Positions 15,622-41,261 of a stretch of DNA of 41,261 nucleotides are shown piece by piece. Both the position numbers and the translations under genes were made by a program. Source of the stretch: a virus. Under the pieces are notes generated by a model. It did not search any database. It saw only the letters and a program-made list of their open reading frames with translations, and was not told the origin of the DNA. Every line of letters starts with the position of its first letter. Within the stretch, counting starts at the first letter, position 1. Where the stretch lies: IMG/VR virus record IMGVR_UViG_3300045988_167023, one strand, 5' to 3'.

Positions 15622-16821
15622 TTAATTATTTATTAAAACAGCTTTTTCTCCCGTTAGATTTTCCCAACGCTGAATAATCACATCGCAGTAGTGTTCATCG
15701 AGCTCCATCATAAAACAATTGCGTTTTAATTGTTCACATGCAATAAGTGTGCTACCGCTACCGCCAAAAACATCCAGAACATTTTCTTCATTCTTTGTTG
15801 AATTAAGAAGAGCATTTGCAATCAATTCAACAGGCTTCATTGTCGGATGAAGTTTGCTTGCTGTTCTTTTATATTCCCAAACAGATTTATCTTGTTCCCC
15901 TTTTCTTTGAAAGTCGTGATTTTTTACCCATCCATACAAAATTGGTTCGTGCTTATAATCATAATCCAATCTGCCCATTGAAAAAACGGGTGCGTCCTTA
16001 ACCCATATAATTTGATGACGGCAAGGTATTCCTGCTTTCCTCATCATCATCATCATCATCATCATCTCTTGATCGCCACCTTGACAAGAAAATACATAAT
16101 AACTTGCTGTATCTTTCAAACAAGAAAAAGCGTTTGTAAATACATCATATAAAAAGTCTTGAAATTGGTCTAAAGTCAAATCATCGTTTTGTATTTTTGT
16201 ATATGATTTGCTCTTAAGAACCTCTTTTGTCTTTTTCTCGTAAGAAACTCCGTACGGCGGGTCTGTAAATAATAAATCCGCTTTTTCACCGTTCATCAAC
16301 TTTTCAACATCATCAATCTTTGTGCTATCACCACACATCAAGCGGTGATTTCCCAATTGCCAAATATCACCATGCTTACAACGTGTTTCTATTTTTTCCG
16401 GAACTTCATCTTCTGTAATTTGATTGTCTTCTTCTGCTTCTGTTTCAACTTCGCCCCAGTCTAAGCCCCAAGATGTAGTCAAGGCTTTATCCCAATCAGC
16501 GGTTAAGATTTCCCAATCCCACTCGCCGTCTGAAATATTATCAGTAATGACAATTTCGTCTTTTTCGGCTTGTGTGAGGGGGCGGGTTGGATACATAACC
16601 GGTATTTCTAAATCTTTCCCCGCAATTTTCAAAAGAGCTTTTAACCGCTGATTCCCACCCAAAACGTTTAAATTCTCATCGGTTTTAACTGGATTATGAA
16701 AGCCAAGACGCTGGATTTTATCTTGAAGACGCTCCAGTTTTTCTTTTGAAATTTTGCGCGGATTTTTGGCGTTAGGGATCAGGTCGCCAATGCGTACATA
16801 TTTAACCTGCCAAATATCCAT
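15622..16821 (-). CDS. ParB-like N-terminal domain fused to a beta-class amino DNA methyltransferase (DPPY, then FGGSGST).
   Basis: N-terminal GGNQRLKAL ParB-type motif; motif IV LFTDPPYG; motif I VFGGSGST at the C-terminus. Confidence 0.8.
   Translation of the reverse strand: MDIWQVKYVRIGDLIPNAKNPRKISKEKLERLQDKIQRLGFHNPVKTDENLNVLGGNQRLKALLKIAGKDLEIPVMYPTRPLTQAEKDEIVITDNISDGEWDWEILTADWDKALTTSWGLDWGEVETEAEEDNQITEDEVPEKIETRCKHGDIWQLGNHRLMCGDSTKIDDVEKLMNGEKADLLFTDPPYGVSYEKKTKEVLKSKSYTKIQNDDLTLDQFQDFLYDVFTNAFSCLKDTASYYVFSCQGGDQEMMMMMMMMRKAGIPCRHQIIWVKDAPVFSMGRLDYDYKHEPILYGWVKNHDFQRKGEQDKSVWEYKRTASKLHPTMKPVELIANALLNSTKNEENVLDVFGGSGSTLIACEQLKRNCFMMELDEHYCDVIIQRWENLTGEKAVLINN
16042..16065 (-). repeat. 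(CAT)8 on plus = (ATG)8 on the coding strand; encodes Met x8 inside the methyltransferase.
   Basis: Read directly; corresponds to aa 253..260 of the 15622..16821 ORF. Confidence 0.95.
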
Positions 16822-18390: not shown

Positions 18391-18738
18391 TTATATGTTA
18401 ATAAATTTCTTCAAAGCCTCTTTGACATCATCAACTGACCGGGCGAGGATATACACCCCGCCCATTTCTTCAATCATTTTCTGGAATAGCTTTTGGCTTG
18501 GCCTCTGCTTTCCTTTTTCGTTTTTTACTTCAATTTCAAGACGAATCCCGCCTTTTATAATCCCGGAAATATCGCCCCCGCCTAATACCCCGAAAGATAT
18601 AAAACGGCAGCCAGACGATAATTTACCGGTATTCTGCCGCCAAATTTTTAAATCATCACGGCAGCCAAATTCAAGTAAAATTTCTTGTTGTATTTGATGT
18701 TCCGACTTCATTGCAGAAGATTCTTTCGTTTCAGCCAA
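18391..18738 (-). CDS. VRR-NUC domain nuclease.
   Basis: Signature pattern: E..IQQEIL, RQNTG, GxPDL-like GGGDISG, EVKNEKGKQRPSQKLF, SVDDV. Confidence 0.6.
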   Translation of the reverse strand: MAETKESSAMKSEHQIQQEILLEFGCRDDLKIWRQNTGKLSSGCRFISFGVLGGGDISGIIKGGIRLEIEVKNEKGKQRPSQKLFQKMIEEMGGVYILARSVDDVKEALKKFINI

Positions 18739-21629: not shown

Positions 21630-21920
21630 ATGAAAAGAATGTATAATACTTTTGAAGAATTTGAACAACTGCCGCAGGAAGTTAAAAACAAAATCATTAG
21701 AGATTTGGCTGCCTATGATGAAACACACGTTTTCTTTGAACATGGTAAATATGATGTTTCGGTTGACTGGTGCTTGCGCGCAAGTTACGGCAGCGATCAC
21801 CGTTTTATCGGAGAGTGGAGCTATAAAGATTTATCTGAAAGGCTGCCGGAGCTTAAAAAAGCCCGTGAGGATTATCTGAATGAGTGCAGCAACTATAACT
21901 GGGACGCTTTAAATGATTAA
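21630..21920 (+). CDS. First early gene; acidic 96-aa hypothetical protein.
   Basis: RBS AAGGGG upstream; directly after P1. Confidence 0.5.
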   Translation: MKRMYNTFEEFEQLPQEVKNKIIRDLAAYDETHVFFEHGKYDVSVDWCLRASYGSDHRFIGEWSYKDLSERLPELKKAREDYLNECSNYNWDALND

Positions 21921-22728
21921 AACAACAATCAGATGTTCGAGCCTGCCGCATTATTCAGATTGCCCGCGCAAGGCTGCCGCAAAAATGATTTTACAAGAGC
22001 TGGTAACGGACGGTTACCAGCTAAAGGCTTTACCGACATCAGTCGGGGCAGCCGTTGGAACTGCAACGCATAACGGGATTGAAACGGCTTTACTTCTGCG
22101 CCAAGAGGGGCATACATACGAAAAAGAACTTGCGGAAACCGTAGAATTAAGCATAAATTCGTCAATTTCAAATGGGATTTTGTGGGACGATACGACACCT
22201 ACAAAAGAAGTTGCAATCAAGCAAGCTATTCGTATGGCCAAATCGGTAGTAAATTTTTTTCCTGAATTAAAAGGCGTTGAAATCGAAGAGGAATACAAGG
22301 CGAATCTTGGAAATAATTTTACTTTATCCGGTCATATTGATATACGGCTCGGAAATGAAATTTTGGACGTCAAAACAGGAGCGCGGCGCAGGGCTAACCA
22401 AGCGCAATATGGCGGTTATTCTTTGCTTTGCAAGAGCAACGGAATAAAAATAAAATCGCTCGGTGAAATTTATGTTCGGAGAATCGGCATAACAAAGCCG
22501 CAGCCTGATCCTGATTTTGTGCTGTATCCTATTGCAGACGCTGAACGGCTGGCTTGGGATACAATACAGCAGATAAAAAGCAGCATTGAAAATTACCGGA
22601 AAGAACACAGCCCTAACGTATGGCTTGCGAATCCAAACTCAATGATGTGTACGCCGGATTATTGCCCGGCTTATAACTCAAATTTTTGTAATTGTCATAA
22701 GGGAGAGATAAAAAATGACAGAAGATAA
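21913..22728 (+). CDS. PD-(D/E)XK exonuclease, Cas4/RecB-like, with a Cys cluster.
   Basis: Motifs GHIDI and ILDVKTG (D...D/ExK). Cysteines RCSS...C at the N-terminus and CTPDYCPAYNSNFCNC at the C-terminus. Confidence 0.55.
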   Translation: MIKTTIRCSSLPHYSDCPRKAAAKMILQELVTDGYQLKALPTSVGAAVGTATHNGIETALLLRQEGHTYEKELAETVELSINSSISNGILWDDTTPTKEVAIKQAIRMAKSVVNFFPELKGVEIEEEYKANLGNNFTLSGHIDIRLGNEILDVKTGARRRANQAQYGGYSLLCKSNGIKIKSLGEIYVRRIGITKPQPDPDFVLYPIADAERLAWDTIQQIKSSIENYRKEHSPNVWLANPNSMMCTPDYCPAYNSNFCNCHKGEIKNDRR

Positions 22729-23632
22729 CGAAACTAAAAAAGATTTAGTCGTTGCAGAACAGCAACCGCCTTTAACCGATGTTTTTTCAAATGTCAAAGC
22801 GTTCACCGACGCACAAAGGATTTGTAAAGCCTTGACGCAAAGCGGGATTGTTCCTGTATCTTATCAAGGTGAGCAGAATCTACCAAACGCAATGGTAGCG
22901 CTTGAAATGGCTAACCGTATCGGTATTTCTCCGATTTCGGTAATGCAGAATTTACACGTTATTGAGGGGCGCCCGTCGTGGTCTTCAAACTTTATTATCT
23001 CAATGCTTAATTCGTCCGGGAAATTCACCCCGTTACGCTTTAAGTACGAAAATAGAGGGCCGAAAAAATTTATACGTTCTTATAAAAAATGGAGCAAAGC
23101 TAAAAATTGCTATGAAGATTTTAAAGAAGAGGCCGAGGCCGAAGATATAATTTGTTCAGCTTATGCCACAGATAAATTGACGGGTGAAGTAATCGAGGGG
23201 CCAGAGGCAAGCGTTGAAATGGCTATGCAAGAGGGCTGGTTGACTAAAAACGGCAGCAAGTGGCGCACAATGCCTAAGCTTATGCTGGCATATCGTGCAG
23301 CTGCATTTTTCGGCCGTCTATATGCTCCAGAGCTACTGCTGGGAATACACTCCGATGATGAATTGAACGACATCGCGCCGAGCATTCCCAGCGCGCCGAA
23401 AATAATTGAACCCGACGGAGATATACCGCCTATTATTGAGGTTGAAACAAAACAAGAGGCTGAACCGGAAGAAATCGAAGTTGAAGTAATTACAGATAAA
23501 GCCCCGGAAACAGTTGAAGAAAAAGTTGCGGCTATTATTGAGCCGGAAAAGAAACCGCAGCAGCCTGCGCCGGAGAAAAAAGCCCCTGCCGCAGCTGCAA
23601 AAGCGCCGTTTATGTTTAATTTTGAAGAATGA
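22715..23632 (+). CDS. RecT-family ssDNA annealing protein.
   Basis: Motif AMQEGWLTKNGSKWRTMPKLMLAYRAAAFFGRLYAPELL. Confidence 0.7.
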   Translation: MTEDNETKKDLVVAEQQPPLTDVFSNVKAFTDAQRICKALTQSGIVPVSYQGEQNLPNAMVALEMANRIGISPISVMQNLHVIEGRPSWSSNFIISMLNSSGKFTPLRFKYENRGPKKFIRSYKKWSKAKNCYEDFKEEAEAEDIICSAYATDKLTGEVIEGPEASVEMAMQEGWLTKNGSKWRTMPKLMLAYRAAAFFGRLYAPELLLGIHSDDELNDIAPSIPSAPKIIEPDGDIPPIIEVETKQEAEPEEIEVEVITDKAPETVEEKVAAIIEPEKKPQQPAPEKKAPAAAAKAPFMFNFEE

Positions 23633-25310: not shown

Positions 25311-25311
25311 T

Positions 25312-25524: not shown

Positions 25525-25536
25525 TACAAAAAAGTG

Positions 25537-25598: not shown

Positions 25599-25610
25599 AG
25601 GAGCAATACG

Positions 25611-25784: not shown

Positions 25785-25807
25785 TTTTAATGCAGGAGAT
25801 AAAGAAT

Positions 25808-27858: not shown

Positions 27859-27867
27859 GGGGGCTTT

Positions 27868-29187: not shown

Positions 29188-29434
29188 AAAATACGGTTTA
29201 ACAAAACACGAACGAAAGCTTTTAGAAAAAGCTCAATACTACCAATATAAAGCTGAAGAAATGCACAGAAAATTTGCCGATAGTCTGCAAAATAGATTTT
29301 ATAATTCCATTACAATTAACGATTTTGAAGAGTGGGATTTATGGACGTTGAATGAAAGCGGAGATAGTTCGGGAACCGAACAGGAAGCACGTTTTTGGCG
29401 AAAAGTAAGAGATGAAGAGGAAGAAAATAAATGA
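29180..29434 (+). CDS. Hypothetical protein.
   Basis: Start at MTKKYGL. Confidence 0.4.
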   Translation: MTKKYGLTKHERKLLEKAQYYQYKAEEMHRKFADSLQNRFYNSITINDFEEWDLWTLNESGDSSGTEQEARFWRKVRDEEEENK

Positions 29435-29643
29435 GTGTAGAATTGTCTGACATAGCAAAAAATTACGGTTGGGAATCTTGGGGCGAGTATTTTATTTTAA
29501 GCAAAGCACACGGCGAGTTTCATTTAAGTAAAAATGGATTGTTTTTTGTTTGTGCGAGTTGTTCAAGAAATACACCTATCAAAACTATATTAAAGCCTAA
29601 AGATATTAAAGATATTTTGAAAGCATTAGGAGAAAAGCGATGA
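29431..29643 (+). CDS. Hypothetical protein.
   Basis: 70-aa ORF. Confidence 0.4.
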   Translation: MSVELSDIAKNYGWESWGEYFILSKAHGEFHLSKNGLFFVCASCSRNTPIKTILKPKDIKDILKALGEKR

Positions 29644-30056
29644 GTGCAGAGAAACCAGAAGTCGGCGATGTATGGGAAGACTCAAAAGGTATGGTGCATA
29701 TTAGTCGTATATTTACATTATCGGACGACACAAGAGCAATAGTTTTTATCGATAATAACAATAACACAGTACTCGAAGATTCCGCTAGAGAAGAACATTT
29801 TATTAAAATGTTTACTTATAGCGGCAAGAGCAAAGCCAGTGTTAACGATTTGTTTCAAACCGAGCAAGATGTTGCAAATAATGTTGCAAAACCAACTTTG
29901 CAACATCTACAAGCAGAAAACAACCGGCTTAAAACCACCCTGAAAAATCTTAAAAGTTTAATGTTAGATCCTGATTGTGTTCAAGACAGAGGAGATATTT
30001 ATGTAATGGTTCGAGCTATTGACAAAGCCTTAATCGGTGAAAGTGAGGAGAGATGA
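29640..30056 (+). CDS. Hypothetical protein carrying the 36-bp shared DNA motif.
   Basis: 138-aa ORF; contains VANNVAKPTLQH. Confidence 0.45.
   Translation: MSAEKPEVGDVWEDSKGMVHISRIFTLSDDTRAIVFIDNNNNTVLEDSAREEHFIKMFTYSGKSKASVNDLFQTEQDVANNVAKPTLQHLQAENNRLKTTLKNLKSLMLDPDCVQDRGDIYVMVRAIDKALIGESEER
29871..29906 (+). repeat. 36-bp motif gttgcaaataatgttgcaaaaccaactttgcaacat; copy 1 of 2.
   Basis: Near-identical (3 mismatches) to 31027..31062; contains three TTGCAA cores. Confidence 0.85.
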
Positions 30057-30262
30057 CAAGCAACCTGAAAAACATAAATAGCTTCATTCTTAATTCGTAC
30101 ATCGGTACAATCAATAAATTTGTTGGAGAAAAGATAATTAATGACGTTGCGGAAACTAAGGCAGAAGAACTTAATGAGGATACCTTCAAATTTTTTGAGA
30201 AATTAGCTCATAAAATAAATTCATTAAAAGAATGTCAACGTAATTGTGTATTTAGAAAGTGA
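30053..30262 (+). CDS. Hypothetical protein.
   Basis: 69-aa ORF. Confidence 0.4.
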   Translation: MTSNLKNINSFILNSYIGTINKFVGEKIINDVAETKAEELNEDTFKFFEKLAHKINSLKECQRNCVFRK

Positions 30263-30268
30263 GGAAAA

Positions 30269-30634
30269 ATGAACCAGTATAAGTATAAATACTTTTTTCT
30301 CCCGAAAAAGTTTAAGGCTATTGCAGATATACACATAGCATTTACGGAATTTAAAACTTCCGGGAAAATGGTTGTCAGAGAGAAGATTGACTTGGTGAAG
30401 GGGCTTTTTTCTAACGATGGAACTGGAGAACGTACTTTTGTAGAAATGCCCAACGGAGATACAATCTACATTGAAAGAAAATTACTCGTTCCCGTCCCGC
30501 TGTTATTCAACGCCGAGAAAAAATTTCAGGAACAGGTTAAGGCTTGCATCCAGTTGAAAGAAAGGGAAAAGCTGATGACACTTGATAAAATATTCAGTTT
30601 CTTTAAGAAATTCAATTTTTTTGAAGTAAAGTGA
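30269..30634 (+). CDS. Hypothetical protein.
   Basis: 121-aa ORF with RBS GTGAGGAAAAATG. Confidence 0.45.
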   Translation: MNQYKYKYFFLPKKFKAIADIHIAFTEFKTSGKMVVREKIDLVKGLFSNDGTGERTFVEMPNGDTIYIERKLLVPVPLLFNAEKKFQEQVKACIQLKEREKLMTLDKIFSFFKKFNFFEVK

Positions 30635-30640
30635 GGAACA

Positions 30641-30844
30641 ATGAACGATAAAGAAAAAATCAAAAGATACGATTTGCTTGATTGTATCGAGCTTGTAGAA
30701 AAATGCCCGCATTGCGGAAATAATATCATAGTAAGTCTTACAAACTTTAAAACCGTAAGCTTTAAGTTTGGGCTGACTTGGACTTGCCCCGGTTGCCACG
30801 CTGATTTTCATATTAAAAAAATCGAACTTGAGGAACATAAATAA
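30641..30844 (+). CDS. Zinc-ribbon protein (CPHC...CPGC).
   Basis: 67 aa with two CxxC pairs. Confidence 0.45.
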   Translation: MNDKEKIKRYDLLDCIELVEKCPHCGNNIIVSLTNFKTVSFKFGLTWTCPGCHADFHIKKIELEEHK

Positions 30845-31095
30845 TGCAGAACATTTATACTGTTTTGGATAAAATAAGATTTGACGAACGTGTTAATGAA
30901 GAAATACGAATTTTAAAACAATGTGAAAACACAGACAGTTTCAATGCTATTTTATCTGATTTTGTATTCAAAAACTTTTGTTTCGGACTTATTCGGGATT
31001 TTTACGATGAGATTTTGAAAGAAAATGTTGCAAATAATGTTTCAAAACCAAATTCGCAACATTTTTGTAACATTTTTGAAAGGTTGTACAAATGA
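30844..31095 (+). CDS. Hypothetical protein carrying copy 2 of the 36-bp motif.
   Basis: Contains VANNVSKPNSQH. Confidence 0.4.
   Translation: MQNIYTVLDKIRFDERVNEEIRILKQCENTDSFNAILSDFVFKNFCFGLIRDFYDEILKENVANNVSKPNSQHFCNIFERLYK
31027..31062 (+). repeat. 36-bp motif, copy 2 of 2.
   Basis: gttgcaaataatgtttcaaaaccaaattcgcaacat. Confidence 0.85.
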
Positions 31096-32062: not shown

Positions 32063-32317
32063 TTAATTCCCCGCCGTATTTCGTAAACTATTATATTTTA
32101 AATCATATTCAGACAAGCATGCCGCCATATCAGCCGGTGTTTTAATATGCCGTATGCAATTAATCGGCTCAGGCTCAATAGGAGCAGGACAAACACGAGT
32201 TGCGCAACCGCACAATAACAGCATTGCCGTAAATATCATAATTCCAATTAAAGCCGCTTGTATCTGTTTTAACCGCTGCTTGCAATTCCGCGGCTCTCTG
32301 TTCCAGTTTTTTAACAT
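32063..32317 (-). CDS. o-spanin (outer-membrane lipoprotein, Rz1-like); start uncertain (32239 or 32224 likely).
   Basis: Hydrophobic IMIFTAMLLLCGC with a lipobox-like LCGC, then Pro-rich CPAPIEPEPINC. The first 143 nt overlap the i-spanin gene out of frame. Confidence 0.55.
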   Translation of the reverse strand: MLKNWNREPRNCKQRLKQIQAALIGIMIFTAMLLLCGCATRVCPAPIEPEPINCIRHIKTPADMAACLSEYDLKYNSLRNTAGN

Positions 32318-32507
32318 TTTCGTTTCTCCGGTTTAGTTCAAATGATAAAGATTCGCCCTCTTGGCGCAGTCTTGCATTTTCTGTTTTAAGCGTGTTTTTT
32401 TCGTTTTCTAATGCGTATATTTTATTTTGTGCTAAATTATACCTTATATAATAAAACACTAACGCAGACAAAAGAAAAGCGCCTATAATTTTAACAATAT
32501 TATTCAA
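32175..32507 (-). CDS. i-spanin (Rz-like): N-terminal TM plus periplasmic coiled coil.
   Basis: RBS GGAGG 6 nt before TTG at 32507 (TTGA overlap with the upstream stop). TM IVKIIGAFLLSALVFYYI, then coiled coil ENEKNTLKTENARLRQEGE. Confidence 0.6.
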   Translation of the reverse strand: MNNIVKIIGAFLLSALVFYYIRYNLAQNKIYALENEKNTLKTENARLRQEGESLSFELNRRNENVKKLEQRAAELQAAVKTDTSGFNWNYDIYGNAVIVRLRNSCLSCSY

Positions 32508-33091
32508 TTTAAGCCTCCGAGAGCATAACACGAGGCATAAACAACGCCGCCATAAATAATTTCGGCCCATTTTGTCGGCGAATTAGCCCAAGACGGCAAT
32601 TTTTCAGGCCATAGGTTAGAATTGTATAAATCCCAGCAAAAAAGGTAAATCGGCGCGGCTGCATTGCCTACGAGAAAATAACGCCAATCAAGAAACATCA
32701 ACGGAATCATCGGGCAAGTATAGCGCAAAGTCATATACATAAAGTCGTAGCGGGTTGAATAATAGCCGAAGAAACGTTTTTTTGCCAGCCAGTCGCAAGG
32801 CTTATGATACCAGCGTTGTTCGTAACGCGCTATTGTGGCCTCGTCAGGCTTTCCCCCGTTTCCTAAATCAAAACAACAACCGTGTCCCCGGCTCCAAAAT
32901 TCAAATTGCAGCCATAAGGATATTACAAGAGGCCAAAACCAATTATGCCAATCTGCAACATAAATGTTCAAAAATAAACCTATCATAAATCCGGTTTGTA
33001 AAGCCCTATTGTTTAAAACCGGTATTTTTTCAAGCGCGCCGCCATACCACCGGCGGGAAAACGCTCCCATAAGAAAATAATATAAAATCAT
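32504..33091 (-). CDS. Trp/aromatic-rich polytopic membrane protein of unknown function inside the lysis cassette.
   Basis: RBS GGGGG before the ATG at 33091; the track ORF starts at 33103. About 196 aa with at least 5 hydrophobic segments and no recognisable catalytic motif. Confidence 0.45.
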   Translation of the reverse strand: MILYYFLMGAFSRRWYGGALEKIPVLNNRALQTGFMIGLFLNIYVADWHNWFWPLVISLWLQFEFWSRGHGCCFDLGNGGKPDEATIARYEQRWYHKPCDWLAKKRFFGYYSTRYDFMYMTLRYTCPMIPLMFLDWRYFLVGNAAAPIYLFCWDLYNSNLWPEKLPSWANSPTKWAEIIYGGVVYASCYALGGLN

Positions 33092-33140
33092 ATCTACCCC
33101 CATTTAATTGTTATGAAGAAATTAAAAAACGTCAATAGAT

Positions 33141-33168
33141 AAATTAAAGCCCCCGAAAAATCGGGGGC
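33141..33168 (-). terminator. Hairpin terminator after the lysozyme gene (minus strand).
   Basis: Stem gcccccga/tcgggggc with loop aaaa, followed on the minus strand by TTTAATTTATCTATTGACGTTTTTT. Confidence 0.55.
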
Positions 33169-33214
33169 AGCAGGTCAGATGAAAAGAAAAATTACAGTTA
33201 TAGTCTAGAATGAT

Positions 33215-33706
33215 TTATTTTGCTGTCAAGTCTTTTAAATTTTTAACCCATACGCCCGTTTTAATTAAATGCGCAATACGCTGCGCCCGTGCTGGAACTT
33301 GCTGCGCATAAACCGAATGTAAACACTCATAGGCTGCGCTTTCAAATTTTTTTTGTTTCATAAACGATAGCATTTTTTTAAAGTCATTTAATTTTGTAAA
33401 TCCCAGCTGGTAACACATATCAATTAACGCGTATTTCCGTTCATTATCCAAGTCGTGAAACCACTCCCAGCCGTTCAATAAGTCAATCACCCTTTCAACA
33501 TCATTTCGCAAGAGCATTAACGCTTGATTGCGGGTTATTCCGTGTTTCCAATCTCCGATTGCTCGTAATTCCTCTTGCGTAAACGGGTTTGTATCAATAC
33601 ACCGGCCGATACCGATAGTTAATTTGCCTAAATGGTCATAATACGGCAAAAGGCGGCAGCCCTCGTGAAACTCCAGCCTTTCAATTATCGTTTCCATTTT
33701 TATCAT
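33215..33706 (-). CDS. GH24 (T4-type) lysozyme endolysin with no cell-wall-binding domain.
   Basis: Motif ERLEFHEGCRLLPYYDHLGKLTIGIGR aligns with T4 lysozyme E11/D20/T26. Start at MIKMET (33706) after RBS GGGGGG; the track ORF starts at 33832. Confidence 0.8.
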   Translation of the reverse strand: MIKMETIIERLEFHEGCRLLPYYDHLGKLTIGIGRCIDTNPFTQEELRAIGDWKHGITRNQALMLLRNDVERVIDLLNGWEWFHDLDNERKYALIDMCYQLGFTKLNDFKKMLSFMKQKKFESAAYECLHSVYAQQVPARAQRIAHLIKTGVWVKNLKDLTAK

Positions 33707-33986
33707 CTTTTCCCCCCAGCTTTTTCGCAAAAATCTCTGGAATAACGCTAAGGCAACGGGACAAAACATCATAAACCTTTGTAGATAATACCCCGCATAA
33801 ATAACCACAGCAGGTTGACACTTCCGGATCATAGCCGTAGTGTTTCATCAAAATTGCGGGGACGTAGCAAAATGTTACTCCGAGAATAAACAAGCATAAA
33901 CTTCTTTGAATACTTATATAAACCTCGTTTAACATATTCCACACCCCCGCAACGATACTAGCCACCCACAAAGTAAAATCTTCCAT
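33681..33986 (-). CDS. Holin (2-3 TM, charged C-terminus).
   Basis: RBS GGGAG 9 nt before the ATG at 33986. Hydrophobic segments, then KKLGGKDDKNGNDN. Overlaps the lysozyme start. Confidence 0.55.
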   Translation of the reverse strand: MEDFTLWVASIVAGVWNMLNEVYISIQRSLCLFILGVTFCYVPAILMKHYGYDPEVSTCCGYLCGVLSTKVYDVLSRCLSVIPEIFAKKLGGKDDKNGNDN

Positions 33987-34038
33987 ATCGTAAAGCTCCC
34001 AGCGTCTAACAAAGCATAGGCGCAAACAAAAGCCTTTG

Positions 34039-34494
34039 TCAATAGTGTTTTGCAATATAGGTTTTTTTCGTCGCGTTTTTAGGCGCGTCTACATCGGTCA
34101 GAATATCGCAGGCAAGTTTAACGTATGTATCAACCGGGAAATCCTGTGAATAATGATCAGAATAAACCATATTCAAAACATAAAACCACTCGGCAGGATT
34201 AAAGTCATATCCTTTTTTAGACATTACGTCGCTTGTCTGTGCATAGCTCCAGTGTTCCCCGGTCGTCCCGTCTTTATTCCGCATATTTTTTACGGCATAT
34301 TCGGCTTGTTCCTTGTCCCACGGAATACATTTATTTGATAGCTTGACTTCTGTAATAAACTTTTTTTCAAGCTCCGGCGCAACTTCTTTGACTTTATGGG
34401 TGAACTTATCAATAACATCTGTTAACCGCTCCATATCGTCAATATCGCTTTTTCTGCCGTATTCGTCCATAAGTTCTTTAAATTCACTCATCAC
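34039..34494 (-). CDS. Hypothetical protein (accessory, lysis region).
   Basis: 151-aa ORF. Confidence 0.45.
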   Translation of the reverse strand: MMSEFKELMDEYGRKSDIDDMERLTDVIDKFTHKVKEVAPELEKKFITEVKLSNKCIPWDKEQAEYAVKNMRNKDGTTGEHWSYAQTSDVMSKKGYDFNPAEWFYVLNMVYSDHYSQDFPVDTYVKLACDILTDVDAPKNATKKTYIAKHY

Positions 34495-34711
34495 GCGCCC
34501 CCGTTTCTGATTCCGGCTTATATGCGCCTAGAATATTTTTAACGTCGCAGTCTCCGCTTTTTCGGTCAGAAACTTCCGCTTTTTTAGGCGGCAGCATTTT
34601 AGCTAATTCCTGATCGACAATGACGGAGGCTTTTTTTAAATTTTCAAAACACCATTTCCGAGCTGATTCATTACCCAGAATATAGCCTAAAACTAAATAA
34701 AGCCCCCTCAT
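34484..34711 (-). CDS. Hypothetical protein.
   Basis: 75-aa ORF. Confidence 0.35.
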   Translation of the reverse strand: MRGLYLVLGYILGNESARKWCFENLKKASVIVDQELAKMLPPKKAEVSDRKSGDCDVKNILGAYKPESETGARDE

Positions 34712-34713
34712 CG

Positions 34714-35130
34714 TTAAGCCCTCTTTACTTCAACTGTTGCAGAAGTAGGCGCAGGTGTTGACTGCGTCCCAGACGGGAAAGCAACCGGAAAACAACTCGG
34801 CTTAATGCGGCATAAAATAGACGCGTGAACCGGGTTATTTCCGTACACCATTAAAACAGAGCGAACGCAGCGCAATTGATCGGCGTGGGCATAATTTCCA
34901 GACTGGCAACTTGGTTGAAATACCGGGATTGTAGTAGAACCATTTACCAGATAAACTTGGTTTACTCCTGCGTCAGCCGGAATCTCCTGCGCTAAGCAAA
35001 GACGAAAAACCTGCCCGTTCGTGAGCGTTACGTTTGGAATGGTTATGTTTAACTGCGTACCCGCAACCGTCATTGAGGTTGTTTTAATTTTCAAAACTTC
35101 GCAAGTCATATTCTCTTGTCCTTTCACCAA
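34714..35130 (-). CDS. Cys-containing protein with a loose resemblance to the exosporium BxpB/ExsFA family.
   Basis: N-terminal TCEVLKIK versus BxpB DCEFTKID; later FRLCLAQEIPADAG versus FFLSLGTPANIIPGSG. This is a weak, unverified resemblance. Confidence 0.3.
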   Translation of the reverse strand: MVKGQENMTCEVLKIKTTSMTVAGTQLNITIPNVTLTNGQVFRLCLAQEIPADAGVNQVYLVNGSTTIPVFQPSCQSGNYAHADQLRCVRSVLMVYGNNPVHASILCRIKPSCFPVAFPSGTQSTPAPTSATVEVKRA

Positions 35131-35134
35131 TCAA

Positions 35135-35725
35135 TTAAGCCAAAACGTTTCCGCTGCAGCCGCAACCGCAACCATTCAGGCCGGTAATGCCTAAACCGTT
35201 AATAATTGCAGCGTTCGGGTAAACAGCCCCTACACCGGTAACGTCAGGACGTTTCAACATCTGGCAGGAAATAGCAGCCAGCTGTTTATCAACTTCACCA
35301 AACTTGCGGTCATTATACAGCTGATTTTCCAAAACCAGATTTTTACGCTGTGCCTCGGCCAGCTGATCGCGCAAGCCCTGATATGCGTAGAAATCAATTT
35401 TTTCCGCAATCATACGAGAGTTTGCCGTATCATTTGCGCGGGTGAGGTTTGCCTGTTCTTCAACAAGATACTGCGTGCGCGCCGAGTTTATAATTTCTTG
35501 TTTTTCTGAATTACAAATTGCTTTGTAATCTTCGAACCCAAGTCCATAGCCCGGTACGCCTACGCCGGTGGCGAAACCACTGGCCCAGTTCCCGCCGCAA
35601 TTACCGCAGCCGTTACCAAACCAACCATTGCCGCAGCCGTTACGATTAAACAGAAACGCTACAACAATAAGGAAGAACAAGGCCAAAAAGCCAATGCCGC
35701 CCCAACTATAAGATTCTTTATCCAT
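35135..35725 (-). CDS. Membrane-anchored Gly/Cys-rich protein with a central coiled coil.
   Basis: TM IGFLALFFLIVVAFLF; then NGCGNGWFGNGCGNCGGNW; coiled coil; C-terminus GLNGCGCGCSGNVLA. Confidence 0.45.
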   Translation of the reverse strand: MDKESYSWGGIGFLALFFLIVVAFLFNRNGCGNGWFGNGCGNCGGNWASGFATGVGVPGYGLGFEDYKAICNSEKQEIINSARTQYLVEEQANLTRANDTANSRMIAEKIDFYAYQGLRDQLAEAQRKNLVLENQLYNDRKFGEVDKQLAAISCQMLKRPDVTGVGAVYPNAAIINGLGITGLNGCGCGCSGNVLA

Positions 35726-35752
35726 AATCTTATCCTTTATTAAAGCCCGATA

Positions 35753-36112
35753 TTATTTGATCCGTTTCAGATTTTCCCTCAACCGATCCAACTCGCTGGC
35801 AGGGGCTTGTTCTGCCTGCGGGTTAAACTCTTTTGTATCATAAACACTTTCGGCCGTGTTTATGCCTTTCAACAAATCATCTTTATTGCAGCCAAGTTTT
35901 TGGATTGCCCAACCCGCCAAAGGGTGATTTAATAACGATTTGGCTTTTTCAAAACTGGCTCGGTCAATACCTGCTTTTTGAAAAACCTCTTGCGGATTAT
36001 TTGAACCCTGCAAAATGTTCGTCGCAACATCATACGCCCGGCTTAACATCTGGGCTTTTTCGGGTTTTAAAAAGCGGCTCGCTACGTTCAGTATTAGCTG
36101 TTTGTTTAGCAT
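35753..36112 (-). CDS. Hypothetical protein.
   Basis: RBS GGAGGA upstream; overlaps the upstream ORF by 83 nt in another frame. Confidence 0.4.
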   Translation of the reverse strand: MLNKQLILNVASRFLKPEKAQMLSRAYDVATNILQGSNNPQEVFQKAGIDRASFEKAKSLLNHPLAGWAIQKLGCNKDDLLKGINTAESVYDTKEFNPQAEQAPASELDRLRENLKRIK

Positions 36113-36440
36113 TGCTTTCTTTTTCCTCCAATTTTACGACTTTATCATTTAAGGCAGCCAAAGCGTTTGACATCTCCAACATCATCGCTTGGGTGTCTTT
36201 TAAAACTTTTTGCGTTTCTTTGCTCATTTCTTCCGGCGTTTTAGGCTTTTCCAAAATGCCCTTATCATAAAGGATTTGCTCGTAATCCTTAGCCGTGTCT
36301 ATGGCTTTTTTGTATTCTTCATTCGTAACGCCGATTTGCTGATTAAAAGAATTATAAATTTTTCCGTTGCTCACAAAGCCGATAAAATTACTTTGTGTTG
36401 CGTTAATTTCCCGGTAATTAAAATTATTAAAATCTGTCAT
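36030..36440 (-). CDS. Hypothetical coiled-coil protein.
   Basis: Start at MTDFNNF after RBS AAGGGA; the track ORF starts at 36512. Confidence 0.4.
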   Translation of the reverse strand: MTDFNNFNYREINATQSNFIGFVSNGKIYNSFNQQIGVTNEEYKKAIDTAKDYEQILYDKGILEKPKTPEEMSKETQKVLKDTQAMMLEMSNALAALNDKVVKLEEKESNAKQTANTERSEPLFKTRKSPDVKPGV

Positions 36441-36495
36441 CGCTTGCCGTCCCTTTTTCAACAATATATTGCAAGAGGGCAAGCTGTAGTGTAGT

Positions 36496-36535
36496 AAAAT
36501 AAAACATCGCAATCCCTCGCTTGGATTACGATGTT
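36496..36535 (-). terminator. Rho-independent terminator after the HTH/membrane gene pair.
   Basis: 13-bp stem aacatcgcaatcc/ggattacgatgtt (one mismatch), followed on the minus strand by TTTTATTTT. Confidence 0.6.
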
Positions 36536-36584
36536 AGCAGATGTAAAACATTAGATACGCAAAAGTTGCGCGAAAATTAGGCAA

Positions 36585-36908
36585 TTAATCAGGTATGCTT
36601 TTAATGCTTTCCTCAATCAAGCCGACAGCAATCGCGTTAATTTTTTCAGAATTAGAATCAATTCGGCCGTCTAAAATCAGAAAGCCCGCGCACGCCAAAA
36701 ACAGAACCGTCAAAAACGAAATAAGCCAGGTATACACCAAAACCTTAGCGTCCATGTGGACAATATTGACGTTTCGCGAATTTTTGATTTGCGCATTGCC
36801 GCAACTACTGTTAGTGTCACTGTTAGTGTCTTTGCTGTAATGCTTACTCGTCGACGAGTTGCCGGAATTAAACCGATTCCCCGTCAAATTACTGTTCTCG
36901 TTTTTCAT
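36585..36908 (-). CDS. Single-pass membrane protein with a Ser/Asn/Thr-rich cytoplasmic N-terminus (anti-sigma-like topology).
   Basis: TM VLVYTWLISFLTVLFLACAGFLIL at aa 56..80. Overlaps the upstream HTH gene by 20 nt. Confidence 0.45.
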   Translation of the reverse strand: MKNENSNLTGNRFNSGNSSTSKHYSKDTNSDTNSSCGNAQIKNSRNVNIVHMDAKVLVYTWLISFLTVLFLACAGFLILDGRIDSNSEKINAIAVGLIEESIKSIPD

Positions 36909-37140
36909 TTTTAAAATCCCTAATCTTGTTTAAGACGTTCATAAAAATAGTGGTAACACTGCGCGGGCATTTTCCCACCTTTTCACTCACGCCGTCGTTG
37001 TAATAATTCAGGCGCAAAAGAAATATGTTCAGCTCTTCATCGGTTAAATCAATGTCTGGAGATTTAAGAAGTTCAATAATTTTGCACTTGCGCATTTTTT
37101 TGAACTCGTTTGTTATATCCGATGTTTTACTACGTGGCAT
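36889..37140 (-). CDS. 83-aa GerE/LuxR-type or sigma-70 region-4-like HTH regulator; candidate late-gene activator.
   Basis: LTDEELNIFLLRLNYYNDGVSEKVGKCPRSVTTIFMNVLNKIR aligns with the region-4 / LuxR HTH consensus. -10-like TATAAT and RBS AAGGT lie upstream. Confidence 0.5.
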   Translation of the reverse strand: MPRSKTSDITNEFKKMRKCKIIELLKSPDIDLTDEELNIFLLRLNYYNDGVSEKVGKCPRSVTTIFMNVLNKIRDFKNEKREQ

Positions 37141-37315
37141 ATTTTTACCTTAAATTATATGACAAATGAATTTTAAAACCTTTATTTGTTAAAAGTCAAT
37201 CTATAAAAAAATAACAGTCGCATAACGTCTATTATGAATAATAAGTTACAGGTAGTTTCAAGCTTGCCATCAAGCCCGAATGCAGATACATTCTACTTTA
37301 TCCCGGAGGATTAAA

Positions 37316-38602
37316 ATGACAGTTCACATCGGGAGCAAAATTTATACGGAGTATAAAAAATATACGTATGCCAGCTGGACAATGCCTAATTTGACCCAAA
37401 ACGGCACCGTTGGCAGTTCTTCATACGCTGCTCGTGCCAGTTCTGAATATTCTGGCCATAATGCGTGGAAAGCCTTTAACGGGACAAATACAAGTCAAGA
37501 TGATTGCTGGGAAGCTAATACGAGAGACACGCAACAATGGCTTGAATTTTATTCGCCGGATACGTTAGAGCTTAATACCATTAAATTTACGAATAGAAGA
37601 CAACAATACGTTACCGTTTTTAATCCTATTCTTGTTACTGGGTCAATAGACGGGGGAAACTATTTTGAAATAGGACGTATAACGCCCCCGTCGGCTACTC
37701 AAGACGCACAATATACATTAACGGTTAGCAGCCCCAAAAATAAGCATTGCAAATACATAAGGTTTCAAACCACAAGCAACGGCACCCTTTTGGGCGACGG
37801 CTCAGCCAGACCAAATTTTGGCCGAATTGAATTTACCGGGCAAAAGGTTACAGGATCAACAAACGGCTCTGCGTCTGATTATGATTATTCAGTTTTTCAC
37901 GACGGAAAAATTGAGGACATTTATTTTGGAAAAACTAAAATCGGAAAGATTTATAAAGGCTCAACTCTTGTTTATGCCTCAACCGTTCCAGATACGGACT
38001 TTTTAAAACAGCCTGATTTTTCTACGGCTGAAAGCATACAAGACGGCATTGCGTCAAGCTTTACTCTGGGCGACGGTTACCTATGCCTTTATAATAACCG
38101 TACCAGCCAAGCAATTAAAACTTGTGATATTTGCCCGGACAGTAATTTTAACGAAAGTAACACAATTCGCATTATGTATATGGAACATTTGCCCGGCATA
38201 TCGAATCCGTGCGGCGGTAGTATTTTCCCGATTCCAAAAGGCTGGTGGTGGAAAACTACAAATATGGCCACCGGATTTAGCTGCTATGCTAAAACAGCAC
38301 CGGGCGGAAGAATACCATATAAAAACCGTTTTAAATTAACCCGATTACCTGATTATACGACCGGATTTTCCATTGACCAAAACGAAATTATTTATGCTAC
38401 AAAAGATCAATGGCTAAATAGTTACGGTCGTAATAGAAAAATCGAAATTGCTACAAAATCGGATATGTCCGACGCTGTAACAATCGCCGAGGGTGTGTCT
38501 TCTGCAACGCAAGAGCCATCAACGCAAGTGTTTATTGAAGAGGGCTTATATTTTAGAACGAGCGGCACAAACAACATTAGATTTTTATGCAAGGGGGTTT
38601 AA
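37316..38602 (+). CDS. Discoidin (F5/8 type C)-like domain protein; putative carbohydrate-binding or receptor-binding accessory protein.
   Basis: RBS GGAGGA before the ATG at 37316; the track ORF starts at 37280. AWKAFNGTNTSQDDCWEANT resembles the discoidin AFDG...W motif. C-terminus ...FLCKGV. Confidence 0.45.
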   Translation: MTVHIGSKIYTEYKKYTYASWTMPNLTQNGTVGSSSYAARASSEYSGHNAWKAFNGTNTSQDDCWEANTRDTQQWLEFYSPDTLELNTIKFTNRRQQYVTVFNPILVTGSIDGGNYFEIGRITPPSATQDAQYTLTVSSPKNKHCKYIRFQTTSNGTLLGDGSARPNFGRIEFTGQKVTGSTNGSASDYDYSVFHDGKIEDIYFGKTKIGKIYKGSTLVYASTVPDTDFLKQPDFSTAESIQDGIASSFTLGDGYLCLYNNRTSQAIKTCDICPDSNFNESNTIRIMYMEHLPGISNPCGGSIFPIPKGWWWKTTNMATGFSCYAKTAPGGRIPYKNRFKLTRLPDYTTGFSIDQNEIIYATKDQWLNSYGRNRKIEIATKSDMSDAVTIAEGVSSATQEPSTQVFIEEGLYFRTSGTNNIRFLCKGV

Positions 38603-38604
38603 TT

Positions 38605-38883
38605 ATGCCAAGTATTGATAATTATTGTTTAAAGCCTGATTATTTTACAGGAGTTAGCCAGGGAAACGGTGATAATGTAGATACGGCAAATGACCGTTGG
38701 TTAAATAAAAATCGTGCAAGTCACGTTAAATATGGCGATTTATATTTATACGCGTCTTCATTGCAGGTTAATCGTGATAGTTCACACGGTAGTTTTATGG
38801 GCTATCAAGCTAAAAATATAACGTTTAATTTAGCGCACGCAGATTATGGAAACGCAATAACATTTCAATGTAAAGGAGTTTAA
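38605..38883 (+). CDS. Small protein whose C-terminus (FQCKGV) resembles that of the upstream protein.
   Basis: RBS AGGGGG before the ATG at 38605. Confidence 0.4.
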   Translation: MPSIDNYCLKPDYFTGVSQGNGDNVDTANDRWLNKNRASHVKYGDLYLYASSLQVNRDSSHGSFMGYQAKNITFNLAHADYGNAITFQCKGV

Positions 38884-38886
38884 AAT

Positions 38887-39279
38887 ATGCAGTTGTTTTA
38901 TAAAATCACAAATGAAGAAAAAAACGAAGTTCAAGTATATTTTGGCGGCCGCGAAGATTTTGCAGCTGAAAACGGATTTATTCCCGGCGATGTTGAACAG
39001 TGCAGGACTTCGGGCCGGTGGTATTTAAAGGGCAAAATGCCGGCAGAAGAAAAGGCAGCAGATTTACGCGAAACAAGAGATTTTATGTTGTCAAGCCTTG
39101 ACTGGCGTTTTGACCGTTACCGGGAACAAAAAATACTTGGAATTGAAACTACCGATTCGGAGCAGGATTTTATTGACCTTTTGCAATATAAACAGTATTT
39201 GCGGGATATTACAAAAGATCCTGCTTTCCCGGATATTCAGATTAAAACTTTTGAAGAGTTTAAAACGAATAAGGGATAA
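38887..39279 (+). CDS. Hypothetical protein; possible fiber assembly or chaperone-like protein.
   Basis: 130 aa. Its 3' end overlaps the convergent minus-strand gene by 20 nt. Confidence 0.35.
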   Translation: MQLFYKITNEEKNEVQVYFGGREDFAAENGFIPGDVEQCRTSGRWYLKGKMPAEEKAADLRETRDFMLSSLDWRFDRYREQKILGIETTDSEQDFIDLLQYKQYLRDITKDPAFPDIQIKTFEEFKTNKG

Positions 39280-39511
39280 AATATTTTTCGCCAAAAGTTA
39301 TTTCTGCTTTTTGACCGGCTCCGATAGGAACAATTATTGAAGTTTTATCTTGCGAATCGTAGAAAAAACTTCTTGCAACTTCTACCCCGTCAATAGTTAC
39401 AGTATAAGTCCCTTTGCCGGTATTTATAACAGATAATATACCGGCAGAGGGAGCCGTAAAAGAATTTTCTATTGTCTGTTTTTTAGCCACATCAAGCTTA
39501 AAACTATTCAT
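39260..39511 (-). CDS. Small protein downstream of the tail fiber (XkdW/X position).
   Basis: 83 aa; last gene of the late operon. Confidence 0.4.
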   Translation of the reverse strand: MNSFKLDVAKKQTIENSFTAPSAGILSVINTGKGTYTVTIDGVEVARSFFYDSQDKTSIIVPIGAGQKAEITFGEKYFIPYSF

Positions 39512-39536
39512 AATAGACGTTATCAGACGCTAGGAT

Positions 39537-40829
39537 TTATGCCGTACGTTTCCAAATATTAACTGTTAAAGCCGTCCTTGTAACAGTGCCGACAATACCG
39601 GAAGCGGCTGAATCAGTTGTTAAGCCAACACCTTTACCGGGGTTAGTAGTTGATCCGTTTTGTACGGTACCTACATCAACATTGTATAAATTATCGAAAA
39701 ATGAGGATTGCCCTAAATTTCCGTTATTCATAGCCAAACCTCGTTTATATTCTCCGTTCGTAAATCCCATTGTTTTTCCGTTTCCTTTGACTGGGACACT
39801 TGTGTTAACGGAAGTAATCAGCGACGAGCCTACTTTTTCCCACGTAGAGCCGTCAATAATAGCAGCAAGGGGGCAAGTGCTTTGCGTTCCAAAATAGAGG
39901 CTGCCAACCGGATAAACCGTCCCCATAATAGACGTTATGCGGCTGTTCACCCATTGAGTGTTAGAAATCTTTGTTGAATTGTCATCAGCTCTGGGCGGTG
40001 TTGGACAAGTTGCATATACTTCGCCGTTTTCATTAACTACAACTTTTATATATGATGTTTTTGTAGTCCCACTAATTTTAGAATTCGTATAAATTGATGT
40101 TTCTAAATACCCTGTCGTGGCAAATTCATTTCTAATCTCGCCAGTAAACAAACCGTTTTTATCTAAAAAAAATAACGTGCTGCTAGTACGGGCAGATGGT
40201 TTATTGCTAATATCTGCAAGAGTGTTTTTAAGCCCAAACTTAGGATTATTTGATTGCCCGGTTTTAACTCCGCTAAAAATTTCATCTCCAGAGCGGTGCA
40301 AAAGGTTAAAATTTTGTGACGGGTCAGCAGCTCGTCCTGCGGTCATAATTGCTTGGTTGCTTGTGCTGGTAGACGCGGCAGGGTGCGGGGCAGTTGCCAA
40401 TATACCGTTATTATCATCTCTGTTTAACTGAATTGAACCGAGGATACTGGCGCCGTCTTTGGACGCAACATACATCTGCATATTATCAGAGTTGCCCTCT
40501 CTAATATTTCGCAAACCGCCAAGCCTAGCTGAACCGTCAGAAGTATATTGAATTTCTGTATATGTGCCGCCTGCTTTTCCCAACTTTATCGGTGAAGCGC
40601 CTTTAAAAACTTTTGTCCCCGTAATTGTTTGATTTGAATCTTTATCAACGGCGTTAGCGATTCCGTTTTCGATTTTATTCATATTTTCGGCATTGACCGG
40701 CGTTCCGAGTTCGGTAACAGTGCCGAACGCGTCCATTAATGTTACTGTACTGTCTCCGTTATCTCTAACCGAATATGTACGCGGATTTTCAACGTTTTGA
40801 TCTTTCCACTCTGTTTTTGTGTATGCCAT
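39537..40829 (-). CDS. Tail fiber protein.
   Basis: 430 aa. N-terminus MAYTKTEWKDQ...NAENMNKIENGIANA is the conserved fiber anchor motif of Firmicute phages; the rest is Gly/Ser/Thr/Asn-rich. Confidence 0.7.
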   Translation of the reverse strand: MAYTKTEWKDQNVENPRTYSVRDNGDSTVTLMDAFGTVTELGTPVNAENMNKIENGIANAVDKDSNQTITGTKVFKGASPIKLGKAGGTYTEIQYTSDGSARLGGLRNIREGNSDNMQMYVASKDGASILGSIQLNRDDNNGILATAPHPAASTSTSNQAIMTAGRAADPSQNFNLLHRSGDEIFSGVKTGQSNNPKFGLKNTLADISNKPSARTSSTLFFLDKNGLFTGEIRNEFATTGYLETSIYTNSKISGTTKTSYIKVVVNENGEVYATCPTPPRADDNSTKISNTQWVNSRITSIMGTVYPVGSLYFGTQSTCPLAAIIDGSTWEKVGSSLITSVNTSVPVKGNGKTMGFTNGEYKRGLAMNNGNLGQSSFFDNLYNVDVGTVQNGSTTNPGKGVGLTTDSAASGIVGTVTRTALTVNIWKRTA

Positions 40830-40833
40830 TGTC

Positions 40834-41145
40834 TTACTCCAAAATTTCTTTATTCGAAAGGACGTTTAACCGATATAAATACGTTGCCTGCTGCACATTA
40901 TAACTTAAATTCGGTAAATCCTGCGCAAGCAAAACCCCGCTGCTGTCATAGATTTTTATGCCGTTCAAAATATCGCTTGAACTCGTAAAAGACACATCAA
41001 CGTATATGTCAACCATATAATTATTGAATACCTGTTTATTTTTTATGACAGCTTCCCGCTCCTGGTCGTTTACGATAAGTTTAACCCCGGATATTTTATT
41101 TAACATAAAATCAGCAATTGATTTTTGAAATGTCTTTGTAATCAT
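40834..41145 (-). CDS. Small tail protein between the DUF2313 and fiber genes.
   Basis: ATGA overlap with the stop of the wrap-around DUF2313 gene. Confidence 0.4.
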   Translation of the reverse strand: MITKTFQKSIADFMLNKISGVKLIVNDQEREAVIKNKQVFNNYMVDIYVDVSFTSSSDILNGIKIYDSSGVLLAQDLPNLSYNVQQATYLYRLNVLSNKEILE

Positions 41146-41261
41146 ATCGGATCAGTTCCCCCGTAAAACGTGCCGCAACGCCGGATAAGGTAGGAAATAA
41201 TTATTGTTTTATCATCAATAATAACGTCCGTGCTGTCCAGCAAAAGGCTGCACAAAAAAGC
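41143..41261. repeat. Terminal direct repeat, copy B, identical to 1..119.
   Basis: Exact match to 1..119 read directly from the sequence. The unique unit length is 41142 bp. Confidence 0.9.

Follow-up and report, generated by a model that had tools for sequence, protein, structure and literature searches.

Why should three genes run against the direction of all their neighbours inside the late region of a phage genome? We addressed this question in a 41,261-nt stretch of viral DNA (IMG/VR record IMGVR_UViG_3300045988_167023; this whole stretch is called the window below), in which three open reading frames on the + strand (37316..38602, 38605..38883 and 38887..39279), each with a good Shine-Dalgarno sequence, are set among neighbours that all lie on the − strand. 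The initial annotation, made from the letters alone, had correctly noted this opposite orientation and had offered three explanations for it: an alternative receptor-binding protein, a moron-type adhesin, or the remnant of an invertible host-range segment. We consider, with a probability of roughly 85%, that the cassette, 2 kb long, forms one arm of an invertible segment with three sites, which measures 2.7 kb (about 37229..39931) and belongs to the type of Mu G, P1 C and p15B Min. Three sites share one reading frame, three isomers occur in nature, and the modules are exchanged exactly at the core of the sites. The first and the third of these explanations were therefore close to the truth, since the cassette is the alternative receptor-binding arm of an invertible host-range segment.

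Crossover sites, their common frame and the natural isomers

The late operon on the − strand runs from terminase, portal, capsid, sheath and tape measure to baseplate J, wraps across the window boundary into 40834..41145, and ends in a gene for a protein of 430 amino acids (aa) at 39537..40829. This gene was assigned as the tail fibre because of its position after the baseplate J and gp48-like genes and its PHROG tail matches. A 15-nt core, ATAACGTCTATTATG, has three exact copies in the window. Site A (39919..39944, core 39924-39938, − strand) lies in the fibre gene at codons 298-302, with its central TC at 39932/39931. Site B (39504..39529, core 39509-39523, − strand) covers the ATG of an "83-aa gene" at 39260..39511. 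Site C (37216..37241, core 37222-37236, + strand and hence inverted, central TC at 37228/37229) bounds the invertible DNA on the outside and lies 80 nt ahead of the first cassette gene, which encodes a 428-aa protein. The sequence at 37213-37236 forms 24-nt inverted repeats with 39924-39947 (sites C/A, 96%, 23/24 nt) and with 39505-39528 (sites C/B, 92%), and these repeats, together with the three exact 15-mers, overturn the earlier statement that no inverted repeats were present. When up to three mismatches to the core were allowed, seven matches were found against 1.6 expected, and none of 100 shuffles reached seven.

All three cores are read in one frame, ATA ACG TCT ATT ATG (ITSIM), and these codons close the constant head of the fibre; site A reads NSRITSIM and site B reads LITSIM. 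The constant part (codons 1-302, 39924..40829, − strand) ends in ...WVNSRITSIM and shows PHROG tail/unknown matches at its N-terminus; relatives carry these same 302 aa with one or another of three tails. The first tail, a 128-aa variable C-terminus (GTVYPVG...WKRTA, 39537..39923, − strand) with a weak Gp10_C match, is the one fused to the head in the window and hence the fibre tip expressed there, an arrangement that we call state 1; in L004, L005, L019 and others it is found detached on the opposite strand, starting at a site. The second (82 aa after the core Met, NSFKLD...FIPYSF, 39260..39508, − strand) is silent in the window and is fused to the head in contig L027, which shows that 39260..39511, previously taken for an ordinary late gene, is a silent alternative fibre C-terminus. 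The third is a 25-codon adaptor, NNKLQVVSSLPSSPNADTFYFIPED, followed by a stop codon (37237..37314, + strand); it is translated in the ITSIM frame, and one nucleotide separates its stop codon from the ATG at which the 428-aa gene starts. The cassette can thus not be regarded as a self-contained unit, as had been assumed, because the last third of the fibre gene, at its 3′ end, and the "83-aa gene" also belong to the switch.

We then aligned 53 distinct instances of the site. Conservation extended symmetrically from −11 to +12 around the central TC, of which the C was invariant and the T was present in 51 of 53, and the site contained an imperfect dyad, CATAA-cg-TC-ta-TTATG. Sites of small serine invertases are 26 bp long with a 2-bp asymmetric crossover core, and judged by its sequence the site described here looks like a 26-bp site of this type, with TC as the putative crossover dinucleotide. 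Moreover, variants of the core co-vary within a genome (...GTCAATT... at both sites of L018, ...CTTCTGTT... at all three sites of L016), as expected if the sites recombine with one another. Coding constraint was considered as the cause of the repeats and rejected, since the left flanks of sites B and C are non-coding yet identical in nucleotides. A search of 185,579 species genomes with the core plus AATA returned two matches (Sulfurimonas and Sphingobacteriales metagenome-assembled genomes), about the chance number, so that no prophage or host locus was found in this collection.

Relatives were collected from IMG/VR, from JGI/ENA metagenomes and by exact-protein look-ups, with flanking proteins 96-100% identical to those of the window. 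All three isomers are present among close human-gut phage contigs. State 1 is confined to the window's own strain (the window, L064 and L065). State 2, in which the head is joined to the adaptor and the cassette follows in the same orientation, was found in at least 15 complete loci; the adaptor is the real fibre C-terminus in L004, L005, L019, L023, L029, L033 and L050-L059, for example, and the fibre genes of this state encode 324-328 aa ending in ...ITSIMNNKLQVVSSLPSSPNADTFYFIPE(D). State 3 is represented by L027, where C-terminus 2 is in frame with the constant part in an intact 379-aa fibre; it was found through a protein-anchored search, the exact state-3 junction having given 0 matches in IMG/VR. 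In every case the three left flanks (fibre head, end of C-terminus 1, outer flank) are fixed, and what changes is the module to the right, with the core as the exact point of exchange. The most direct comparison is that of L052 and L053, which come from different samples: their flank is 99.985% identical over 6,783 nt, and the 2,039-nt cassette segment is 100.000% identical and inverted, with the breakpoint at the core.

Contig ends also accumulate at the sites. Of about 35 contigs, seven stop no more than 72 nt from a site and four of these no more than 5 nt from it, where by a rough estimate about 1% of random contig ends would fall so near, and L065, of the window strain, is cut exactly at site C. 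Such a pile-up is the signature of a branching assembly graph, as mixed orientations or cassettes within samples would produce. Misassembly as the origin of the arrangement is unlikely, because repeats of 15-24 nt are too short and the same arrangement occurs in independent assemblies.

We propose the following mechanism. The − strand late operon ends in the fibre gene, whose 302 constant codons end at the core, and reciprocal recombination between site A and an oppositely oriented partner would change what follows codon 302. As one of the sites is inverted and the other two are direct, inversion can take two forms. Starting from state 1, in which the head carries the 128-aa C-terminal domain, recombination of A with C would give state 2, with the head followed by the 25-aa adaptor and its stop, and with C-termini 2 and 1 on the other strand. 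The genes of the 428-aa protein, a 92-aa paralogue and a Tfa/U-like chaperone would then be co-transcribed with the late operon, and receptor binding would become the task of the separate protein of 428 aa instead of the fibre. If the head site of state 2 then recombined with the middle site, state 3 would result, in which C-terminus 2 follows the head and the cassette is flipped beside C-terminus 1. In state 1 the cassette is probably silent stored information, as it faces the late operon and no promoter stood out above chance: the scan gave 20 promoter-like matches against 12.7 ± 3.1 expected, and terminators were likewise not above chance.

Several points weigh against an active switch of this kind. 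The complete circular genome encodes no recombinase of any recognisable class, and the same holds for the early regions of ten sister genomes. The analysis covered assembled contigs, which suggest ongoing inversion in the window strain only indirectly. State 2 dominates, with the cassette directly downstream of the fibre gene and co-oriented with it in about 90% of relatives, while state 1 is the consensus that assembly gave in three contigs, all from a single strain; any flipping that occurs is therefore slow or selected against. In addition, the promoter and terminator scan lends no above-chance support to the silence of the state-1 cassette, and that the three tips confer different receptor specificities is something we infer.

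Possible sources of a recombinase and competing explanations

The first and last 117 nt of the window are identical (1-117 = 41145-41261), and this terminal repeat indicates that the genome, of about 41.1 kb, is complete and either circular or terminally redundant. No match to Resolvase or Phage_integrase was found in about 40 window proteins scanned with Pfam, PHROGs searches on 20 proteins were negative, and so was a six-frame phmmer search of the window with Hin, Gin, gamma-delta resolvase, XerD and Cre seeds, which were approximate sequences. The absence of an invertase and of a reverse transcriptase, already remarked in the initial annotation, was borne out by these searches and by tblastn of the window with the invertase of L026 described below, which gave no match at E <= 10. 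We also found no recombinase in the early regions of the ten sister genomes, nor one adjoining the switch in any locus compared. Features of a tyrosine-recombinase shufflon were likewise missing: there is no Phage_integrase-type protein, the XerD and Cre seeds were negative, and the site is dyad-symmetric. A diversity-generating retroelement was rejected for want of a reverse transcriptase, as no such domain appeared in any Pfam scan and the sole repeats are the 15-24-nt sites.

In two related phage types the early genes, kilobases from the switch, include one for a small serine recombinase that resembles Pin and Mpi; these enzymes are about 50% identical to members of the Mpi family. L026, which shares the core, encodes its Pin-like serine recombinase at 11925-12689; this gene contains an in-frame TAA (FGLAA-stop-IERDMISQRTKEAL), at which place the protein used as query presumably has Glu. 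An intact 255-aa version, 96% identical, is encoded by L039 from another sample (P0026). L036 encodes a recombinase 65% identical (P0029) together with a two-site fibre switch, whose sister site reads CGCATAAC-TGAT-ATTATGAATAA, with GA at the centre of both copies and RITDIMN as the junction peptide. The early genes of L039 show 80-95% protein identity to three window early genes, indicating that these phages share a gene pool and presumably a host. Contigs with other related invertases (P0131, P0110, P0037 and P0028) belong to unrelated phages, and no link was found. As a separate observation, crossover sites in L026 (4132-9412) enclose three genes that are not fibre genes, for a protein of 175 aa, a RecT-like protein and one resembling VRR-NUC, so inversions may have rearranged segments beyond fibre tips.

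Given that the complete genome holds no invertase, flipping takes place in trans, by homologous recombination, or not at all. We prefer, in this order, (a) an invertase acting in trans, (b) a recently orphaned and frozen switch, and (c) the phage's own RecT-like, exonuclease and resolvase-like nuclease proteins. Under (a), the 26-bp central-TC sites would be the substrate of a small serine invertase from the Pin/Mpi-like clade, and a co-resident phage or the host would supply this enzyme. A stronger form of this view, which we put forward tentatively, is that the switch is a true orphan, the phage keeping a functional three-state tail-fibre shufflon and having outsourced its invertase; flipping would then occur only in cells that also hold a Pin/Mpi-like invertase, brought by a co-infecting or resident phage from this gene pool (L026/L039 or L036 type) or by the host.

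The best surviving alternative, which we regard as unlikely, is that the invertase has been lost and the segment is frozen in each strain, the isomers being old inversions or the result of module exchange with invertase-carrying phages. It would account for a genome without a recombinase, for the predominance of state 2 in about 90% of contigs and for a state-1 strain that was assembled identically in three contigs; the exchange of the module between different phage backbones and the in-frame stop in the L026 invertase also agree with it. However, the three cores are perfect and sites A and C agree at 23/24 nt, though the fibre region is otherwise 3-10% off its relatives, and cores co-vary within genomes. 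The perfect sites, the pair L052/L053 with a segment that is 100% identical yet flipped, and contig ends that cluster at the sites, in the window strain as well, argue against a frozen switch. For the earlier suggestion of a remnant of an invertible host-range segment this means that the invertible segment stands and the word remnant does not, the sites being perfect and all isomers existing in nature.

Still less probable is inversion by homologous recombination on the 15-24-bp repeats without any site-specific recombinase. The phage has the genes that this would require, namely a RecT-like annealase (22715..23632, phrog_561, 1.4e-69), an exonuclease-like protein (21913..22728) and a resolvase-like nuclease of the VRR-NUC/Holliday-junction resolvase kind (18391..18738); no invertase is present, and exchange confined to the core fits either mechanism. 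Nevertheless, 15-24 bp is very short for efficient annealase-driven exchange, and phages with no more than 61-72% protein identity in the fibre head still have one and the same nucleotide core. The architecture of the site, with a symmetric conservation window of 24-26 bp around a nearly invariant TC, and its association with invertases argue against this route, as does the sister site of L036, where the centre has changed in both copies in a genome with a Pin-like invertase. Moreover, the window contains sites A and B as direct repeats, between which a homology-driven process would be expected to generate deletions (deletion products were not searched for).

Finally, a fixed and independently expressed moron or adhesin cassette, its orientation being native or an artefact of assembly, is very improbable despite the strong Shine-Dalgarno sequences of its genes and a weak promoter-like match at 37264-37292, because nearly all relatives have the cassette co-oriented right behind the fibre gene with the adaptor stop 1 nt before the cassette ATG, its orientation varies solely through exchange at the three sites, and promoter-like matches are not clearly above chance; the moron-type adhesin of the initial annotation is likewise not supported.

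Cassette proteins and the surrounding genome

The first cassette gene (37316..38602, + strand), with GGAGG 7 nt upstream, encodes the 428-aa receptor-binding protein. Its discoidin-like character had been suspected from a motif and is supported by a Pfam match above cut-off to F5_F8_type_C (PF00754; aa 39-155, E 9e-7, 29.5 bits against a cut-off of 28.2). We then predicted its structure, as had been suggested, with AlphaFold2 and 22 homologues (mean pLDDT 74, about 85-90 in the N-domain). In Foldseek the modelled N-domain matched CBM32/muskelin discoidin structures with TMt 0.72-0.75 and a root-mean-square deviation of 2.7-3.0 Å, the best being 2j1a (TMt 0.75, 2.7 Å), with 4pqq at TMt 0.72, which agrees with a lectin-like fold. 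The family match and the model together identify the N-terminus as an F5/8 type C (discoidin)/CBM32 domain, for which sugar binding is a prediction.

The discoidin/CBM32 domain at aa ~20-185 is followed by a KIYKGSTLVY-type linker (aa ~198-225) and two C-terminal beta-sandwich domains. The C-terminal 230 aa were modelled as these two domains with pTM 0.74; they had no convincing match in the PDB (TM <= 0.33), and BFVD gave weak tail-fibre-like matches. Discoidin-less versions of 238 aa, starting at about aa 198 of the window protein, are encoded in L001 (9013-9411), L033 (11220-11909), L050 (3866-4582) and L056 (3851-4567), indicating that the lectin domain is a modular and dispensable N-terminal add-on. 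The segment KIEDIYFGKTKIGKIYKGSTLVY of the 428-aa protein recurs at the N-terminus of a 205-aa tip protein in L007, which is otherwise unrelated to the 428-aa protein and sits behind the same adaptor; this makes the segment a good candidate docking element. In our model the adaptor tail of the fibre (VVSSLPSSPNADTFYFIPED) would dock onto the KIYKGSTLVY region of the 428-aa protein.

The second gene (38605..38883, + strand) encodes a 92-aa protein that travels with the cassette in every case and has no Pfam or PHROG match. It aligns to aa 345-428 of the 428-aa protein (BLASTP, 26% identity, pairwise E 2e-4), and both proteins end in CKGV; the shared ending, pointed out earlier as a hint of paralogy, thus reflects a weak paralogy of the C-termini. 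The protein is probably an assembly or tip accessory. The third gene (38887..39279, + strand) encodes a 130-aa protein with PHROG matches to tail fibre and tail fibre assembly families (1e-9 to 2e-5) and a match to Pfam Phage_tail_APC (PF16778) at E 4e-4, whose 20.6 bits are under the cut-off of 26.6; its gene position fits a chaperone. We regard it as a chaperone-like protein and putative analogue of Mu U / P2 G. Its 3′ end overlaps convergently with 39260..39511 by 20 nt (39260-39279), a real feature, as originally described, and one conserved in all relatives.

On the other side of site C, an 83-aa helix-turn-helix (HTH)-like gene (36889..37140, − strand) abuts the outer site and is conserved there in all window-type relatives. 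Its product has no Pfam or PHROG match and is not a recombinase; homologues occur in L034 (divergent, 74% identity, near the fibre gene) and in L053 (a second copy, 40% identity), and it may serve as a regulator or as an accessory in recombination. The exact protein was found in 546 index blocks of public assemblies, mostly on contigs of about 40 kb from human-gut samples. The switch and about 5 kb downstream of it (window 32504-37140, from the HTH gene to a 199-aa membrane protein) are common to different phage backbones. Protein identity in this shared block is 96-100% with the 74-kb L033 and 35-97% with L007, L016 and L032, and in L052-L054 (80-94 kb) nucleotide identity is about 98% over 2.2 kb of flank. 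The occurrence of the block in different backbones indicates that host recognition and lysis genes move together as a module. A 196-aa membrane protein at 35135..35725 (− strand) has Gly/Cys-rich tracts (GCGNGWFGNGCGNCGG; GCGCGCSGN), a coiled coil and no family match, and is 87-99% conserved, larger phages included.

A phage lysozyme gene (33215..33832) adjoins a spanin-like pair on the − strand (32063..32317 / 32175..32570), consisting of an overlapped i-spanin with a transmembrane segment and coiled coil and an o-spanin with the lipobox LLLCGC. Such a pair points to a host with an outer membrane, despite structural genes of PBSX/Clostridia type: the terminase and sheath are PBSX-like, and among named sequences their closest counterparts, from PBSX-like phages and prophages of Clostridia, reach 38-59% identity, too little to indicate the host. 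Strong Shine-Dalgarno sites and the PBSX-like structural genes place the host probably outside Bacteroidales, and on these gene features we infer a diderm Firmicute rather than a member of Bacteroidales. No integrase and no tRNA genes were found in the window genome, and megablast with the switch region gave no match among isolated phages. The phage is apparently virulent and widespread in the gut. Elsewhere in the genome, eight consecutive methionines in the product of a ParB-N / N6-N4 DNA methylase gene (15622..16821, − strand) are encoded by a perfect repeat of the trinucleotide TCA (x 8.7 on the + strand, 16041-16066), which is a possible slippage-prone tract. The early-gene region at 25000-31000 has a G+C content of 0.33-0.36 against about 0.41 elsewhere and is a mosaic of small genes held piecemeal in common with other gut phages (L039, L030-L033).

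Relation to known inversion systems

Invertible tail-fibre segments are textbook biology, and to our knowledge almost all that have been characterised belong to enterobacterial phages and lie beside their invertase. The switch described here is a new family of this known type, with a new site, an arm composed of an adaptor and a separate lectin-domain protein, and no invertase in the genome. One of its three stored tips is a lectin-domain protein, and this in a common human-gut phage. If the switch is active, host range depends on other phages or host invertases sharing the cell, metagenomic assemblies of this phage family break or mis-join at the sites, and annotation pipelines list silent cassettes as ordinary genes. 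Should the phage indeed have outsourced its invertase, host-range switching would be a community-level, trans-complemented trait, and a coupling to the phase-variation machinery of the host itself would be conceivable. For tests, the 26-bp site and the P0026/P0029 invertase clade offer a defined pair.

An invertase that acts at a distance has a precedent in Mpi of Bacteroides fragilis, a serine "master invertase" that works in trans on many distant regions without a recombinase of their own. We propose the same in-trans logic for the orphan phage switch, with the difference that the targets of Mpi are promoters in the host chromosome, whereas coding segments on a phage would be flipped here. 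In the shufflon of R64, which has an adjacent tyrosine recombinase, the repeats are 19 bp long and asymmetric. With R64 Rci/pilV and with Rin of Bifidobacterium prophages the present switch shares multiple inversions that swap C-terminal specificity modules behind a constant N-terminus (PMC6109161). Rin has an adjacent tyrosine recombinase and asymmetric 11-bp repeats (PMC6109161). In contrast to Rin and R64, the site described here is dyad-symmetric around a 2-bp centre, and the enzymes of the relatives are serine recombinases.

Invertible tail-fibre systems are well known from Mu, P1 and p15B and from BV01-like and Bifidobacterium phages (PMC13596623, PMC6109161, PMC9881135). BV01-like phages of Phocaeicola vulgatus have a multi-cassette shufflon at the distal end of a carbohydrate-binding tail fibre (PMC13596623), and they resemble the window phage in being human-gut phages with short directional repeats between cassettes and several natural configurations (PMC13596623). 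They differ in that the BV01 shufflon has its recombinase beside it and uses a 10-bp TGGGAGAACT motif, and in that BV01 is temperate (PMC13596623); in the window genome the site is different, and there is neither a recombinase nor an integrase.

The closest parallel is offered by Min (p15B), Gin/G (Mu), Cin/C (P1/P7) and Pin/P (e14). These systems have their invertase; here there is none beside the segment or in the genome, and the copies of relatives lie kilobases off among early genes. The site sequence is unrelated to gix, cix and hix, the backbone is that of a human-gut PBSX-like myovirus, not of an enterobacterial Mu- or P1-like phage, and one variable end consists of an adaptor of just 25 aa, the 428-aa protein with the lectin domain being a separate product that is encoded behind it along with two helpers. 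Other features agree. A constant fibre N-terminus is spliced in frame to oppositely stored C-termini (PMC6109161, PMC9881135), a putative fibre-assembly chaperone gene travels with a variable arm, and the recombining partners are inverted (site C against A and B). Like Min, the switch has more than two sites and more than two isomers. By sequence its sites look like serine-invertase sites of about 26 bp, being imperfect dyads around an asymmetric central dinucleotide that is a putative cleavage position, and phages related to that of the window carry Pin-like small serine recombinases.

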